Shown here one piece after another: positions 3,416-58,443 of a DNA stretch of 64,000 nt. Source of the DNA: an uncultured bacterium (GTDB taxonomy: Bacteria > Patescibacteriota > Minisyncoccia > SW-4-49-11); contig CALMJI010000018.1 of NCBI GenBank assembly GCA_937864235.1, forward strand, positions 8,939-72,938, in the 5' to 3' direction. Below the pieces are notes generated by a model. The model saw nothing but the letters and a program-made list of their open reading frames with translations, did no database searches and had not been told where the DNA came from. A program made the position numbers and the translations under genes. How positions within the stretch are numbered: the stretch's first letter is position 1; every line of letters begins with the position of its first letter.

Positions 3416-3880
3416 TTAGATACTATATAAATCTTGTACTGTTTTGGAAGTTACTAAACCTTCAAAGGTAAATTTTTTGGAAATTAACTCACCTGTATTT
3501 TTAGCTAAAACCTTTACTTTGGTTACATTATTAGATACCAATTTAGCTTCAACTAAACTGTTCAAATTAATAACAGATTTATCATCAAATATATTTGCAA
3601 TTGACTCAATATTAACTATTTTATAGCTTATTTTACCTTTTACATTACCAATTCTGTGATGTCCTTGTACCGGAGATTGTCCTCGTCTTTTATGAATAAC
3701 TCGACTCCCTTGACCAGCTAAAGCAGCACTACCTCCTGTAAATAGAGGAGATATTTTGGCTCCTGATCGAGACTTTTGTCCTTTTTGTCCCTTCCCACTA
3801 TAAGTACCCCGTTTTCCACCACGGCCAATACGCTTACGAGACTTTTGTGATAAATTTGAAGATAATGTGTGAATATGCAT
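3416..3880 (-). CDS. rplO: 50S ribosomal protein L15
   Basis: GRGGKRGTYSGKGQKGQKSRSG glycine/lysine-rich L15 signature; position between rpsE and secY. Confidence 0.9.
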   Translation of the reverse strand: MHIHTLSSNLSQKSRKRIGRGGKRGTYSGKGQKGQKSRSGAKISPLFTGGSAALAGQGSRVIHKRRGQSPVQGHHRIGNVKGKISYKIVNIESIANIFDDKSVINLNSLVEAKLVSNNVTKVKVLAKNTGELISKKFTFEGLVTSKTVQDLYSI

Positions 3881-3881
3881 A

Positions 3882-4343
3882 CTATTGTGTCTTTAATAAA
3901 GCTTTTACAGTGGCTCTGGCGTTATTTAGCTTATTATTACCACCCAACATTTTTGCAGTTATATTTTTGATACCTACTAAATCTACTACTATTCTAGTAG
4001 CTCCTCCAGCTACAATTCCTTTTCCTTCTTTAGCTGGTTTTAGAATAACCTTAGCACTTCCAAATTTAGCAGTTTCATCCACTGGCACTGTACCTGTATT
4101 AACATCAATTTTTACTAATTTTTTCTTAGCAGCATTAATAGCTTTATCAATAGCAATAGAGGTATCAGCTCCTTTACCTACACCTACACCTACTTTACCA
4201 TTTCTATCCCCTATAACTACAGCAGCTCTAAATGAAAATCTTCTTCCTCCTGCCATAACACGGGCTACTCTTGCTATATCAAGTACTTTATGATCATATT
4301 CTCTTTTTTCTGGCTGTCGTGATTGTTGTTGACGCTTTGACAT
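3882..4343 (-). CDS. rpsE: 30S ribosomal protein S5
   Basis: VVIGDRNGKVGVGVGKGADTSIAIDKAI motif. Directly followed by rplO with no intervening rpmD (L30). Confidence 0.9.
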   Translation of the reverse strand: MSKRQQQSRQPEKREYDHKVLDIARVARVMAGGRRFSFRAAVVIGDRNGKVGVGVGKGADTSIAIDKAINAAKKKLVKIDVNTGTVPVDETAKFGSAKVILKPAKEGKGIVAGGATRIVVDLVGIKNITAKMLGGNNKLNNARATVKALLKTQ

Positions 4344-5316: not shown

Positions 5317-5724
5317 CTACCAAACTTGACAGATAATTTCACCTCCCAATTTTTCTCTCTTGGCGGTATTGGCATCAATAATACCTTTGGAGGTAGACAC
5401 TACTACAGTACCTTTTCCATACTTAAATTGAGTAGGCAAATCTTGTGCTCCAGAATAAACTCTTCTACCTGGCTTACTAACTCTATCTATACCTTTAATA
5501 CCATCTTTTTTGAGAGTGATTACAATTAAAGGGAAGCCTTTTTCTTGCTCTTGCTTTTCTACAGCTGTTACAAATTTTCTAGTCTTTAATAATTTAGCAA
5601 TTTCAAATTTAAGCTTAGAGAAAGGAATAAGAACCTCTCTCTTATTAACAAGCTGAGCATTACGAATTCTGGTTAACATGTCTGCAATAGGGTCTGAAGT
5701 ATTCATATATCTTATAATTACCAA
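5317..5724 (-). CDS. rpsH: 30S ribosomal protein S8
   Basis: [14 protein letters not shown]8 signature. Confidence 0.9.
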
Positions 5725-6774: not shown

Positions 6775-7143
6775 TTACAACACTTCTGGTGCTAATGATA
6801 CGATTTTCATATATCCAGACTCTCTGATTTCTCTAGCAATTGGTCCGAATACACGAGTACCTACAGGTTCTTTATTACCATTAATAATAACTGCTGCATT
6901 CTCATTAAATCTAATATAAGAACCATCGGCTCTACGATATTCTTTACATTGTCTCACAATAACAGCTTTTACAACATCTCCCTTTTTGACAGTTGCTCTT
7001 GGTTCTGCGCTTTTAACAGAAGCTACAATAATATCCCCTAATTGAGCATATCTTTTACGAGTTCCACCTAAAACATTGAAACATTCAATAATTTTTGCTC
7101 CTGAATTATCAGCTACTTTTAACTTAGTCTCTTTCTGAATCAT
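6775..7143 (-). CDS. rplN: 50S ribosomal protein L14
   Basis: [18 protein letters not shown]14 N-terminus. Confidence 0.92.
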
Positions 7144-7674: not shown

Positions 7675-8094
7675 TTAGTCTTTACTAATAAATTTGGTCT
7701 TAACAGGTAATTTTGCTCCTGCTCTTCTCAAAGCTTCGGCCGCTACTTCAGGAGAAACACCATCAATCTCAAAGAGAATTTTACCAGCTTTAAGGTTAAC
7801 CACATAGTGATCAACGGCTCCTTTTCCTTTTCCCATACCTACTTCGGCACTTTTAGCAGTAATAGGTTTATGTGGGAAAATTCTAATCCAAACCTTACCT
7901 CCTCTAGAAGTATATCTAGTGATAGCTCTTCTGGCTGATTCAATTTGTCTTGCGGTAATCCACTTAGCTTCAGTAGCTTTGAGTCCATATGAACCAAATG
8001 ATAGCTCTATACCTCTTGAAGCAGGGCTAAGCTTATCTGAAGGCTTTCCTTTATGAACTTTTCTATGCTTGGTCTTTCTTGGTGCTAATAACAT
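7675..8094 (-). CDS. rplP: 50S ribosomal protein L16
   Basis: [17 protein letters not shown]16 N-terminus. Confidence 0.92.
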
Positions 8095-9300: not shown

Positions 9301-9567
9301 TTATTTAACTTTCTTACCTCCGTGACCGATAAATTTACGAGTTGGGGAAAATTCTCCTAATTTATGACCAACCATATCTTCTTTAACATAAACTGAGATA
9401 TGAGTTTTTCCATTGTGTACTCCAAAGGTAAAACCTACCATTTCTGGGGTAATTGTACTATGACGAGCCCAAGTTTTGATAATAGTAGAGTCTCCTGGTT
9501 TCAAGGCTGAAACCTTAGCAATAAGCTTTTCATCAATATATGGACCTTTTTTAAGACTTCTTGACAT
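9301..9567 (-). CDS. rpsS: 30S ribosomal protein S19
   Basis: S19 sequence, 88 aa. Confidence 0.9.
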
Positions 9568-13680: not shown

Positions 13681-13930
13681 AGTGACAACACCTCCCCCGA
13701 GGGAGGACAGTTACGTCTGTCCCTCGTCGGGGCGCGAAGGGTGGCAAGGAGTGCCGGGTTTGAACTGAGCGAAATTCCCCTCTTGAGGGGTGCCCGTAGG
13801 GCGGGGTGGATAAAATTAAAACTATAGTATGAACTTTAACCAATATCCACCTCCGGCCTAAAGGCCACCTCCTCCAAAGGAGGACAGAAATACCACAGAA
13901 TACTGTAGGAATAAACTCTACGCTACGAAA
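13681..13930. repeat. GC-rich island of REP-like hairpin repeats (GTAG/CTAC-flanked stems) plus one copy of a conserved 46-nt hairpin element (13845-13890)
   Basis: Local GC far above the roughly 30% background. Short perfect stems (CCTCCC-CCGA-GGGAGG; GGACAG-TTACGT-CTGTCC; CCCCTC-TT-GAGGGG; GGCC-TAAA-GGCC). GTAG at 13796 and CTACGCTACG at 13918-13927. No ORF with homology. Confidence 0.6.
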
Positions 13931-30152: not shown

Positions 30153-30200
30153 ATCCACCTCCGGCACTCCGTGCCACCTCCTCCTAAGGAGGACAAAAAA
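30153..30200. repeat. Second copy of the conserved hairpin element ATCCACCTCCGGC-hairpin-GCCACCTCCTCC-AAGGAGGACA
   Basis: Near-identical to 13845-13890. The internal hairpin differs between copies (GGCC-TAAA-GGCC versus GGCAC-TCC-GTGCC) while pairing is preserved. Confidence 0.6.
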
Positions 30201-30252
30201 TTAAGAGTATCAATCCCCTCTTAAACTGGTAAGGACAAGCCTTGGACTAACT

Positions 30253-30270
30253 GTCTCCCTTTGGAGGGAG
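30253..30270. repeat. 18-nt exact repeat GTCTCCCTTTGGAGGGAG (hairpin CTCCC-TTTGGA-GGGAG); second copy at 55789-55806
   Basis: Identical 18-mer found at two distant intergenic sites. Confidence 0.6.
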
Positions 30271-30284
30271 AAAAATAAAAATAC

Positions 30285-31445
30285 TTACAACCCAAATCTT
30301 CCTCTTGCTGCGTTGAAGTTATGTTGTATTTCACTTAAAGACAATACTCTATTATAAATTTGTAATGAAGAAATATTCCCTCTATAGGCCTGGATATCTC
30401 CAGACTGCCTTACCCCTAAGTAGTTGTTATCTGTAGTGATTGCTGGGGTATTTAATCCATTAGTATTAAATACCAGAGGAGAGTTGTTCCAATACATATT
30501 AAAATTAGATATATTTGTACTTCCAGACCCCATATATGTTATCGTTAACATTCCCCATAGATTTGGGGTGGGATAAAATGAAGTTTTTGCTTTTACCCAA
30601 CCATTATTATTTGCAATATAAAGTCCTTCATATCCAGAATTTAGTTGATTTACATAAGCAATTCCAAGAGTAGATGTACCAGATGATCTTAATGTAATCA
30701 TTCTATGAAAATCAGCTTGAGTTCCCACTTTGGGTTTTGGATTAACACTCATCCATAAATTTATGGTAAATGGATTAGAAGTTGATATAAAATAAGAAGA
30801 TCCTAAATTAATAAAATCATCAACTCCATCAAAAACCAAACTACCTAGATTAGCACTATTATATCCAACCCCATTCACAAGTGTTACATTATTATTTCCA
30901 CTAAGATCAAACCAAGTTGTCCCTGTCCCTGGATAGCTTGCTGCATTCCCTGCATCTAGGTGTAAAACTAGTCCATTATTTATTACATATGGATTAATTG
31001 AAATTAATCTATTCTCTGATAAATCTGCAGATACTCCTACTTTATTATTATTAGGATTTATTACTACATTATATCCTGTATTTGCTCCTGTTGCTTGGGG
31101 GTCTTTTGGGATGCCTGCTATGTATGTTGGGACTAATTCTCTCAAATCTGCTCTATCAGTACAGTTTGTTGATCCTCCTACCTGCTCTACTCCTGTATTA
31201 CATATATATCTAGGCGTTGTACTTATACTATTTGGATATCTTCCATTATCTATTAGATATTGTTCTAAGGCTTTATATATTGTATTTACATCTGACCTTC
31301 TTTGTGCATTCCTTGCTTGGGCTATTTGCCTGTTTGGATTTATGGCTACTAATACTATTGCTGCTAATATTCCTATTGCTGCTATTACTAAGAGTATCTC
31401 TAATAATGTAAATCCTTTTCTTGTTCTTTTATGATTTTGTATCAT
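30285..31445 (-). CDS. Type IV pilin-like protein with class III signal/N-methylation site and a C-terminal LamG (concanavalin A-like lectin) domain
   Basis: N-terminal RKG-FTLLEILLVIAAIGILAAIV (G/F cleavage site, Glu at +5). C-terminal roughly 230 aa with LamG-type beta-sandwich motifs (LVFDGVDDFINLG; NISSLQIYNRVLS). Confidence 0.8.
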   Translation of the reverse strand: MIQNHKRTRKGFTLLEILLVIAAIGILAAIVLVAINPNRQIAQARNAQRRSDVNTIYKALEQYLIDNGRYPNSISTTPRYICNTGVEQVGGSTNCTDRADLRELVPTYIAGIPKDPQATGANTGYNVVINPNNNKVGVSADLSENRLISINPYVINNGLVLHLDAGNAASYPGTGTTWFDLSGNNNVTLVNGVGYNSANLGSLVFDGVDDFINLGSSYFISTSNPFTINLWMSVNPKPKVGTQADFHRMITLRSSGTSTLGIAYVNQLNSGYEGLYIANNNGWVKAKTSFYPTPNLWGMLTITYMGSGSTNISNFNMYWNNSPLVFNTNGLNTPAITTDNNYLGVRQSGDIQAYRGNISSLQIYNRVLSLSEIQHNFNAARGRFGL

Positions 31446-31616
31446 ATATGTATATTAGTTTATATTGCTTTCTATATATTATTTTACCCCCCCGGAGCTT
31501 TTGTCAAGTTTTTTGAATGGTTTTTATATATATTTTTTGTTATATACCTTAGTTTGGGTTTTGGCAACGGTTGCAATTGTGGATATGTTTGGGTTGTAAT
31601 TGTGAATATTAAATTA

Positions 31617-31720
31617 TCTACCCTACCTCTTCGGGGACTTACTCCTAAGGGGAACAGAAAGCAAGCTACAAAAACAGCCCCCTCCACCTGCGGGTAATCC
31701 CTCCAAAAGGAGAGAAAACA
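31617..31720. repeat. GC-rich degenerate member of the CCTCC/GGAGG hairpin-repeat family in the pilin upstream region
   Basis: CTACCCTACC, CCTCTTCGGGG, and CCACCTGCGGG...CCCTCCAAAAGGAG, which resembles the 13845/30153 element. Confidence 0.4.
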
Positions 31721-46286: not shown

Positions 46287-46475
46287 CCTTCGTAGCGGAG
46301 GCTTTTAGTCTATCCCATACCTTGTTTGGGATGGGGTTTATCCCTCCATTTTTTCGTAGGAGCATGACACCCCCCTCCTAAAGAGGATAAAAGCTCCAGT
46401 ACAAAAATACCTCGGGCGACATAAGGCCGCCCCTACAAACACAAAACACAATTGAGGGACTTAAAGCCCTACGAT
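46287..46475. repeat. Cluster of REP-like elements: two forward GTAG-hairpins and two inverted hairpin-CTAC units (BIME/REPIN-like)
   Basis: GTAG at 46292 and 46356. GGTTTATCCCTCC at 46335-46347 matches the RAYT-internal hairpin. Hairpin GGGCG...CGCCC followed by CTAC at 46433; AGGG...CCCT followed by CTAC at 46470. Local GC is about 50%. Confidence 0.65.
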
Positions 46476-46540
46476 TACAAGAATAATTTATATTTCTTAA
46501 CTTTTAATTCTTAATTCTAGCCCGCCCTCTACTACAAAAT

Positions 46541-55709: not shown

Positions 55710-55741
55710 AGCCCCACAAGTAACTAGCGGGGCTTTTTTCT
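55710..55741 (+). terminator. Rho-independent terminator
   Basis: AGCCCC...GGGGCT stem followed by TTTTTTCTTTTT. Confidence 0.55.
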
Positions 55742-55749
55742 TTTTCCTT

Positions 55750-55870
55750 CGTAGGGGCGACCTTGCAGTCGCCTGTATTTGATATTTTGTCTCCCTTTGG
55801 AGGGAGTCCCCGTAGGGGGAGGTGGTCCCTCCAATACTTTGTTTGGGAGGGGACGGAGGAGGACTATACC
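55750..55870. repeat. REP-like GTAG-hairpin elements plus the 18-mer GTCTCCCTTTGGAGGGAG
   Basis: CGTAGG-GGCGAC-cttgca-GTCGCC (55750-55774). 18-mer identical to 30253-30270 (55789-55806). CGTAGGG-GGAGG-tggtc-CCTCC (55811-55832). GGAGGAGG-rich tail. Confidence 0.65.
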
Positions 55871-55931
55871 CCATTTGACAAAAATAGAAAATTTTAATAC
55901 TATAAATAACACTCTCAATGAGGAAAAACTA

Positions 55932-56282
55932 ATGTCAATTCCCTGCAAATACTCTAAAAAGAATTGGGAGAATATTTTAACCCTACTACAAAGGGCAAGA
56001 GGTTCAAAAAGTCAATCTGTAGAGAGGTACTATGGTTTTAGAAAGAGAGAAGCCCAAAAAGACACGAATGATATAGGGCAAACTGGGAATTCTATCAGAA
56101 CAATCGATTTAGCAATCAGTCAAATACGTCATAGCATTGAACAAGAAAATGAATCTGATCATATAATGATATTATTAGACATCAACATGTATCACTTAAT
56201 CGAAAGGTTAAGACGCAGAAAATTAAAGCTCAAAAAAATAAGAAGACAATACAATAATTCAATCACCACCCCGCTAAATTAG
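55932..56282 (+). CDS. Hypothetical protein with a strongly basic C-terminus
   Basis: GAGGAAAA RBS 8 nt upstream of ATG 55932. C-terminal RLRRRKLKLKKIRRQ. The track ORF from 55779 runs through the repeat region and is rejected. Confidence 0.5.
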   Translation: MSIPCKYSKKNWENILTLLQRARGSKSQSVERYYGFRKREAQKDTNDIGQTGNSIRTIDLAISQIRHSIEQENESDHIMILLDINMYHLIERLRRRKLKLKKIRRQYNNSITTPLN

Positions 56283-57883: not shown

Positions 57884-57894
57884 GGATATTTTGT

Positions 57895-58443
57895 ATGAAA
57901 AGGCAGTATAATAGATTATCTAAAGAGCTTTATACTGGTGGTTTTTGGTATTTTGTGACTATATGTACAGATGATATGAAATGTATATTTGTAGCGGAGG
58001 GTTTATCCCTCCAAGACAACAAATTTATACTCAATTCTTTGGGTAAAATAGTGGAACAAGAAATTTTGAATTTGGAAAATAACTTTCGTAAAACAAAAGT
58101 TGAAAATTATATTATTATGCCCAATCATACTCATTTGATTATTTCTATTGATGAAGGTGCTACTAGAGTTAATTTTCAAAAAATGATTTCCTTAGGGGAT
58201 GTTGTTGGTTTATTAAAAGCATATACTCAAAAAAGGGTCAGAGATGAGTTAAATAAAAATGGAGGGATAAACCCTCCGCTACGAAATATTAAAGGAGTTA
58301 ACTTTAATAAAATTTGGCAAAAATCTTTTTATGATCATATCATTCGTAATGATAATGATTTACTAAGAATCCAAGAATATATTATAAATAATCCTATAAA
58401 CTGGGAGTTAGACTCTCTCAACCCCACCAATCTCAAAAAATAA
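57895..58443 (+). mobile_element. REP-associated tyrosine transposase (RAYT; IS200/IS605 TnpA-like Y1 HuH enzyme), single domesticated copy
   Basis: HuH motif (NHTHLII) and catalytic Tyr block (WQKSFYDHIIRND). 182 aa. No flanking IS ends. Starts 11 nt after the cca stop. Confidence 0.8.
57991..58012. repeat. GTAG-hairpin (GTAGC-GGAGGG-TTTAT-CCCTCC) inside the RAYT coding sequence; perfect inverted partner at 58261-58282
   Basis: The two 22-mers are exact reverse complements, 248 bp apart. Both lie in-frame within the ORF and match the intergenic elements at 46292 and 46335. Confidence 0.7.

Follow-up and report, generated by a model that had tools for sequence, protein, structure and literature searches.

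Why would a transposase gene carry, inside its own coding sequence, two inverted copies of the kind of repeat on which such enzymes act? This question is raised by a REP-associated tyrosine transposase (RAYT, or TnpA_REP; REP stands for repetitive extragenic palindrome) gene at 57895-58443 on the + strand of the 64-kb stretch of DNA from an uncultured bacterium that we analysed, hereafter the window. The 22-mer GTAGCGGAGGGTTTATCCCTCC at 57991-58012 (+ strand) has its exact reverse complement at 58261-58282, and these are the only two matches in the whole window, even when up to three mismatches are allowed. The earlier note on this DNA had described the pair as in frame and bracketing the HuH (histidine-hydrophobe-histidine) motif, each member being GTAG plus a GGAGGG/CCCTCC hairpin, and both the window search and the folding of the arms agree with it. 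The exact inverted repeat is 23 bp long (gene nt 97-119 and 366-388), and each arm has a GTAG head, a 1-nt spacer, a 6-bp GGAGGG/CCCTCC stem and a 5-nt loop, with predicted DNA folding energies of -6.2 and -6.5 kcal/mol (z -4.6 and -5.3). The left arm, REP-L (57991-58013, + strand), is translated in frame as V33-Q40 (VAEGLSLQ) in the beta1/alphaA loop of the protein, and the right arm, REP-R (58260-58282, - strand), its exact reverse complement, as G123-R130 (GGINPPLR) in the loop after helix alphaC; the open reading frame (ORF) continues through both. The arms are separated by about 246-248 nt, all of it coding sequence and including the HuH codons at 58126-58134. No GT[AG]G-hairpin was found within 150 nt of either end of the RAYT gene, and both copies are internal.

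That the repeat reflects chance similarity or an assembly artefact has next to no probability. None of 100 dinucleotide shuffles reproduced the match between the arms, and this explanation is already refuted because independent assemblies from different samples (L081, L088, L089/L154, L102 and L157 among the loci compared with the window) carry identical arms; the exact window protein is present on 8 contigs from 4 sources. We think it rather likely that the arms are the cognate REP of this RAYT, lodged in frame in two surface loops. By analogy with characterized systems, and with similar, better-than-even confidence, we take them to be functional hairpins for the gene's own product, held as linked resident copies; the same analogy makes it plausible that the gene's own product recognizes sites within the gene.

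The gene, which starts 11 nt past the stop codon of cca, encodes 182 aa and is subclass 2.4-like. The family and fold are established by a profile match, the predicted structure and the motifs rather than by curated cut-offs: on these grounds the ORF is a domesticated Y1/HuH RAYT/TnpA_REP, belonging to subclass 2.4 of Quentin et al. 2018, which is group 4 of Bertels et al. 2017. A profile built from 29 homologues matches E. coli TnpAREP (4ER8) with an E value of 2e-9, the AlphaFold2 (AF2) model has a pLDDT of 89 and a pTM of 0.85, and Foldseek relates it with probability 1.0 to 2XM3, 4ER8 and 2VJV, including ISDra2 TnpA; the sequence identity to E. coli TnpAREP is only ~18%. Many close homologues carry a precomputed PF01797 match. 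The motifs that Quentin et al. 2018 list for subclass 2.4 are NH[IFV]H, WQ and YIxNNP (PMC6006769 Table 1), and the corresponding motifs here are NHTH in the window (NHIH in L081 and L102), WQKSF and YIINNP. The earlier note had reported the HuH and catalytic Tyr motifs, and both are present, although the catalytic residue is Y162 in EYIINNP (motif YIINNP at 58378-58395, + strand; codon 58378-58380), which aligns to Y115 of 4ER8, and not the Tyr of WQKSFYDH. The HuH motif, H78-T79-H80 in MPNHTHLII (58126-58134, + strand), aligns to that of 4ER8 and sits on the strand formed by residues 78-91 of the AF2 model; H78, H80 and Y162 are invariant among the 29 aligned homologues. The stretch WQKSFYDHIIR (58315-58347, + strand) corresponds, by HMM (hidden Markov model) alignment to 4ER8, to the residues with which E. 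coli TnpAREP binds GTAG, W94, Q95, W99, E100, H101 and R104 (PMC6006769 Fig S11 legend; PMC3479197), to which W141, Q142, Y146, D147, H148 and R151 align, with conservative replacements at 2 of the 6 positions.

The arms are constrained beyond what the encoded protein requires. Among codons for conserved residues, those in the arms are identical in 14/14 cases in L081 and 11/11 in L082, against 85/121 and 49/92 elsewhere in the gene (Fisher p 0.01 and 0.002, respectively). Judged from these codon comparisons, the arms are conserved at the nucleotide level beyond protein constraint; this was a check that the earlier note had proposed. The RAYT as a whole has a dN/dS of 0.23 between the window and L081. 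Where the stems of the two arms differ (L009, L028, L040, L163), the differences are all paired and compensated within one arm, and all other arm-to-arm differences are confined to the loops. Because the stem changes are compensated within an arm, selection appears to act on each local hairpin and not on a 25-bp stem between the arms.

The arms also have kin outside the gene. A metagenome scan with GTAGNGGAGGGTTTAYCCCTCC found 80 copies in 73 loci, and about 25 of these are singleton copies in contigs of GC 0.29-0.37, mostly flanked as tttcGTAG...CCCTCCatt; the in-gene arms share these flanks, with TTTC before GTAG and A/T-rich sequence after the hairpin. An inverted doublet of 270 nt occurs in only 3/73 loci (L102, L154, L157), which we ascribe to the RAYT gene because of the flanks and spacing of the arms and because the loci are syntenic with the window, and the remaining copies are single or in direct orientation. 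The window itself holds 5 GTAG-hairpins against 0.04 expected. At 13905-13926 (- strand) there is a decayed extragenic copy of the arm REP, GTAGCGTAGAGTTTATTCCTAC, with 4 mismatches and with intact orthologues in L099 and L149. A further copy at 46292-46347 (+ strand) is split by a 32-nt insert, with GTAGCGGAGG at 46292-46301 and GGGTTTATCCCTCC at 46334-46347; the earlier note had seen these blocks recur, and they are indeed the same REP. The insert (46302-46333) has its own hairpin, ATCCCA...TGGGAT, and interrupts the REP, which we call type A, within its 5' stem arm; no second copy of the insert was found in the 162 loci compared. The other GTAG-hairpins are GTAGGGGCGACCTTGCAGTCGCC at 55751-55773 (+ strand), in an intergenic GC-rich cluster and conserved in L083 and L095, GTAGGGGGAGGTGGTCCCTCC at 55812-55832 (+ strand) and GTAGGGGCGGCCTTATGTCGCCC at 46414-46436 (- strand). 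Just 5' of the 55751 hairpin, L102 and L095 have an extra type-A REP that is missing from the window near 55735, and more generally the presence of a REP copy at a given site varies between relatives. Together these data show that the arms belong to a low-copy, dispersed GTAG-REP family of this lineage, and the two 22-mers recur outside the gene as true GTAG-REPs.

The same note had offered, as an alternative, that an ancestral REPIN, a pair of inverted REPs a short distance apart that spread together, was absorbed into the coding sequence. This fits poorly and we rejected it: the arms occupy two separate protein loops with 246 nt of coding sequence as their spacer, the extragenic copies are singletons, the two arms of L166 differ, and L086 and L087 have tandem copies.

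Each homologue has its own arm pair, and in L082 the same loop base has changed in both arms. L083, L086 and L087 have at the same two sites a different hairpin, GTCGGCG...CGCCGAC (type B, GTAGAGTCGGCGACCCCGCCGAC), repeated 2-3 times in tandem at the R site. At loci with a type-A RAYT the extragenic REPs are type A only, and in the type-B metagenome-assembled genome (MAG; L086/L087) they are type B only; the inner type matches the extragenic type in every locus examined, showing that the type of the RAYT inner segment co-occurs with the REP type outside the gene. A REP is also found at the REP-L position in L081, L082, L083, L086, L087, L163 and L166. The R-site copy number ranges from 1 to 3 among relatives, half copies included, and in L166 the arms come from two distinct REP subfamilies, both of which have a sibling outside the gene.

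Beyond these close loci, we scanned 80 distant relatives for GT[AG]G-hairpins and found that 61/80 have an intragenic one, lying between the HuH and WQ motifs in 60/80 and before the HuH in 20/80. The density is 2.7 hairpins per kb in the genes and 0.23 per kb in distant flanks, a 12-fold difference. In the clade from the Candidate Phyla Radiation (CPR) the arms are in the beta1/alphaA loop (REP-L) and after alphaC (REP-R), whereas in Clostridial and cyanobacterial relatives the downstream REP is in the beta3/alphaC loop and the upstream REP is 3-4 codons off the CPR position. Since the arm sites are at non-homologous codons in the CPR and Clostridial clades, alignment indicates that the arrangement of one arm before and one after the HuH arose more than once.

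How the arms might serve the gene can be modelled on E. coli TnpAREP, which requires GTAG plus a specific hairpin (PMC3479197). The in-gene hairpins would be bound, and possibly cleaved, as single-stranded DNA (ssDNA) by the gene's own product. They would act as protected resident ('master') copies of the REP, keeping the enzyme and its REP type linked in a genome with almost no intergenic space around the gene, and would be tolerated owing to their position in peripheral loops. REP/REPIN biology has yet to explain how RAYTs and their REPs remain matched over the long term. Should the hairpins in the gene prove functional, a gene of this type would be a minimal REP system complete in itself, with enzyme and substrate passed on together in one ORF. 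Synonymous recoding of the arms could separate the function of the DNA hairpin from that of the protein, and since this locus has both a type-A and a type-B allele, the two form a natural pair for finding the protein segment that recognizes the hairpin. Should the arms be merely tolerated inserts, they add an ordinary case to Quentin et al. 2018, extended to the CPR.

Several observations weigh against the view that the arms are functional cognate REPs. Binding and cleavage of the in-gene arms are read across from E. coli TnpAREP (PMC3479197), and the protein scores below the curated cut-offs of the families to which we relate it: Pfam Y1_Tnp (PF01797) gives 20.8 bits (E 4.5e-4, cut-off 23) and NCBIfam REP_Tyr_transpos (NF047646) 60.3 bits (E 1.9e-16, equivalog cut-off 80). 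Of the HMM evidence proposed in the earlier note, then, the Pfam and NCBIfam thresholds were narrowly missed, while the match of the homologue profile to 4ER8 and the fold agree with a RAYT. In L157, where the gene is on the minus strand and its arms are at 5472 and 5742, codon 18 is an in-frame stop and the C-terminus is altered, and yet both arms are perfect; the identity of the arms among close relatives may partly reflect recency. What looks like purifying selection on the arms could also have arisen through re-insertion of other REP copies or through gene conversion by them. Their constant orientation (REP-L on the + strand, REP-R on the - strand) could follow from which peptides a loop tolerates and not from a DNA function, the peptide VxEGLSL being strand-like and GGINPPLR loop-like. 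Finally, since the window has no intact extragenic copy, only the decayed one and the interrupted one, REP activity in this genome may be low or extinct.

A serious rival, following the interpretation that Quentin et al. 2018 offered, treats the arms as passive passengers, REPs inserted in frame in tolerant loops with no role for the RAYT gene; we consider it unlikely while giving it real weight. It accommodates the finding that the REP-R peptide forms the internal loop of lowest confidence in the AF2 model (pLDDT 75), the presence of REPs of the family inside other genes (in L086, hsdS at 7895 and an ORF at 9490), the varying number of whole and half copies at the R site, the different REP subfamilies of the L166 arms, and the peripheral position at which the variable region is modelled in PMC6006769. 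Yet it has to explain why synonymous sites in the arms are unchanged when 30-47% of the conserved-residue codons have changed elsewhere in the gene, why differences in the stems are compensated, why the extragenic copy at 13905 has decayed (with intact orthologues elsewhere) while the in-gene copies are still perfect, why REPs are so much denser in the genes than in the flanks, and why the CPR and Clostridial clades each came to have an arm before the HuH and one after it at codons that are not homologous. Very little credence, by our estimate, is due to the idea that the arms pair with each other in mRNA or ssDNA, as a 23-25 bp duplex closing the 246-nt loop, to throttle expression (for example as a target of RNase III) or to form a REPIN-like hairpin. 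The minimum free energy and centroid structures of the 351-nt RNA do both hold a 25-bp inter-arm stem (-97.5 kcal/mol, z -7.0), and the arms are perfectly complementary in most relatives with one arm on each side of the HuH, but the changes in L009, L028, L040 and L163 preserve the local hairpins and break the inter-arm duplex, and the L166 arms are unrelated hairpins. The outer TTTC/GAAA complementarity is also present beside extragenic singletons and therefore belongs to the REP or its target rather than to a selected stem. Given the compensation within arms and the unrelated arms of L166, we rejected the long-range stem as a selected feature, though it is thermodynamically favoured. An inversion switch was rejected as well: in the assemblies whose gene was read (window, L081, L088, L089, L102 and L157) the ORF passes through both arms and the HuH codons, which puts the inner segment in coding orientation, and arms of 23 bp are short for RecA.

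The mosaic allele in the syntenic locus L083 bears on one more alternative, in which the inverted REPs bound an exchangeable module made of the HuH core, the hairpin-recognition helix alphaC and the cognate REPs, and lineages swap this module and with it their REP type, perhaps by strand transfer that the RAYT catalyses at the GTAG sites. Compared with the window, L083 is 80-95% identical in cca, the first 96 nt of the gene, its last ~130 nt and the next gene, and 45-58% identical between the arms. The max-chi2 method places the replaced inner segment at 57995-58313 (+ strand), from the REP-L hairpin to just before W141, with a mismatch of 0.51 inside and 0.14 outside, a score reached in 0/200 permutations; the corresponding amino acid identities are 97% for the N-terminal part, 31% for the inner part and 88% for the C-terminal part. 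In amino acid identity the L083 inner segment is closer to the type-B gene of L086 (61%) than to the window (31%), whereas the N-terminal segment is closer to the window (97%) than to L086 (64%). We regard this alternative as improbable as an account of the arms, and find it similarly doubtful that a module exchanged between RAYT alleles, as in L083, lets a resident transposase switch the REP family it serves, with the GTAG-binding and catalytic-Tyr part and the locus unchanged and the enzyme itself perhaps catalysing the exchange at GTAG. The left breakpoint at 57995 does fall directly after GTAG, the inner segment groups with type-B genes while the N-terminal segment groups with the window, the L083 REP is the extragenic REP of the type-B MAG (L086 16686), and the hairpin contacts R78, K82 and R97 of E. 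coli TnpAREP are in or next to alphaC, within the swapped part (PMC3479197). However, a single exchange event was seen, the left junction lies within 13 nt (TGTATTTTCGTAG) common to all alleles, neighbouring genes show mosaic tracts too, and the Clostridial relatives (17 genes, inner versus outer segments) are diverged, with identity of at most 0.81. The right breakpoint (~58313) is 30 nt past REP-R, where the strongly conserved WQKSF codons begin and where an exchange between alleles by ordinary homologous recombination would end, so such recombination is a sufficient explanation.

Small palindromic repeats that lie in frame in protein genes and are tolerated in loops are familiar from the Rickettsia palindromic elements. 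In-frame REP insertions inside RAYT genes themselves were reported by Quentin et al. (2018, BMC Genomics 19:475; PMC6006769) for subclass 2.4 tnpAREP genes, so the core phenomenon was already known; the perfect hairpin pair to which the earlier note drew attention is real, but the arrangement is not new in kind. According to that paper, the inserts of subclass 2.4 preserve the frame, are 'generally' between HuH and Y, and are suggested by its authors to be tolerated because they are peripheral. Our scan of 80 distant relatives accords with this account. Before it, Nunvar 2010, Bertels 2011/2017 and Di Nocera 2013 considered only flanks or REPs in other genes. The gene in the window shares with subclass 2.4 the NHxH, WQ and YIxNNP motifs, a similar length (182 aa here, median 194 in the subclass), the GT[AG]G head, the canonical long stem, the in-frame REPs and a wide taxonomic spread. 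It differs in that the published inserts occupy the beta3/alphaC loop directly behind the HuH, with REPs also flanking the gene, and are read as tolerated passengers, whereas here other loops are used, no REP flanks the gene, the arms are under nucleotide-level constraint and the host is a CPR bacterium. This is a known kind of arrangement, here at new loop positions, without flanking REPs and in a CPR host. What seems to be new is that both arms are intragenic and none flanking, and that they occupy the beta1/alphaA and alphaC/beta4 loops instead of beta3/alphaC. The conservation of the arms beyond protein constraint, the compensation within arms and the existence of a syntenic relative with another inner segment and REP type seem to be new as well.

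The better known REP systems differ more. With the E. coli TnpAREP/REP-BIME (bacterial interspersed mosaic element) 'REPtron' (Ton-Hoang 2012; Messing 2012, 4ER8) the window gene shares the fold, the HuH, the catalytic Tyr helix, the GTAG-binding residues, a REP of 5' GTAG followed by a hairpin, and a single gene copy. The REPs of E. coli are longer and bulged in the stem, there are hundreds of them, and they flank the gene, whereas the REPs here have perfect 6-bp stems, are low in copy number and are inside the gene. The REPIN-RAYT systems of Pseudomonas (Bertels and Rainey 2011) likewise have an inverted REP pair foldable into one long hairpin and a vertically inherited single-copy RAYT, but their spacers are tens of nt long and they spread as doublets, in contrast to the 246-nt coding spacer and the singleton extragenic copies found here. 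Intragenic REPs in other genes (Di Nocera et al. 2013, PMC3733652) are also small palindromes tolerated in frame in loops, as in hsdS of L086; in our case the inserts are better conserved than the codons around them, and the gene that hosts them encodes the presumed enzyme for the repeat.

The gene is at a stable locus. The order cca, RAYT, a gene of 88 aa and the V-ATPase operon is kept in relatives, with the same locus found at protein identities of 98% (L088/L089), 76% (L081) and 55% (L083-85), and L102 and L157 have the same layout. No terminal or flanking hairpins and no duplicates of the RAYT gene were found; the lack of insertion sequence (IS) ends and the position 11 nt after cca that had been noticed earlier are thus borne out, and an IS200/IS605 insertion sequence is ruled out by the single syntenic locus without flanking hairpins. 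The presence of the gene does vary, because L095 has no RAYT gene and only 27 nt between cca and the next promoter. This RAYT-less site (L095 4899-4927, syntenic to window 57884-58435) follows a cca with 77% nucleotide identity, and an intact type-A' REP lies in the upstream intergenic region. Immediately 3' of the RAYT the V/A-type ATPase operon is complete (window 58796 onward; L083 10914-19170).

The host is a CPR (Parcubacteria-like) bacterium, as its EF-Tu is 97% identical to that of a MAG labelled Candidatus Parcubacteria. Homologues of the RAYT occur in Moranbacteria, Jacksonbacteria, Parcubacteria and other CPR MAGs, and a scan of reference genome contigs gave only relatives with at most 38% identity. 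Since RAYT relatives are common in CPR MAGs, a CPR host is not surprising, contrary to the expectation of the earlier note that a REP/RAYT system would be out of place in such a genome. One MAG (GCA_032117235.1; L086 4945-13862 and L087 4869-13868) has two RAYT paralogues, each in a type I restriction-modification operon just 5' of hsdR, and the REP copies of these loci noted above inside genes are in hsdS (L086 7895) and in the ORF preceding the RAYT (L086 9490).

We also noted REP-like sequences beyond this lineage and other repeats in the window. The 22-mer core is found in contigs of GC 0.37-0.52 (L092, L106, L107, L110, L111, L120, L125, L129, L155, L162 and others), where it has other, longer conserved flanks, cgcGTAG...CCCTCCgc..agagccat and ggcGTAG...gaaagcgaagcc; given these different flanks, unrelated organisms therefore seem to share the REP core. 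A second small GC-rich repeat, CCACCTCCGGC-N6-GCCACCTCCTCC(T)AAAGGAGGACA, is intergenic and without a GTAG head, and occurs at 13848-13888 and 30157-30197 in the window, at 2005 in L097, at 6901 in L143 and at 7140 and 7446 in L150. In this genome of 32% GC there are four intergenic islands of stacked GC-rich hairpins (13684-13890, 30154-30272, 46292-46540 and 55750-55865), in which whole hairpin units have been inserted or deleted between close relatives. These clusters are not known RNAs, because an Rfam scan of the window at gathering thresholds gave only tRNA-Thr. Directly 3' of an intact orthologous REP in L099, a segment (3682-4055) is homologous to a distant part of the window (31233-31622), in the gene at 30285-31445 and the sequence that precedes its start; a rearrangement or a gene duplication has thus taken place beside a REP. 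The mechanically called ORF at 55779-56282 begins within a REP cluster and its N-terminus, LPLEGVPVGGGGPS, is translated hairpins; the real start is probably the ATG at 55933, where conservation with L083 begins.

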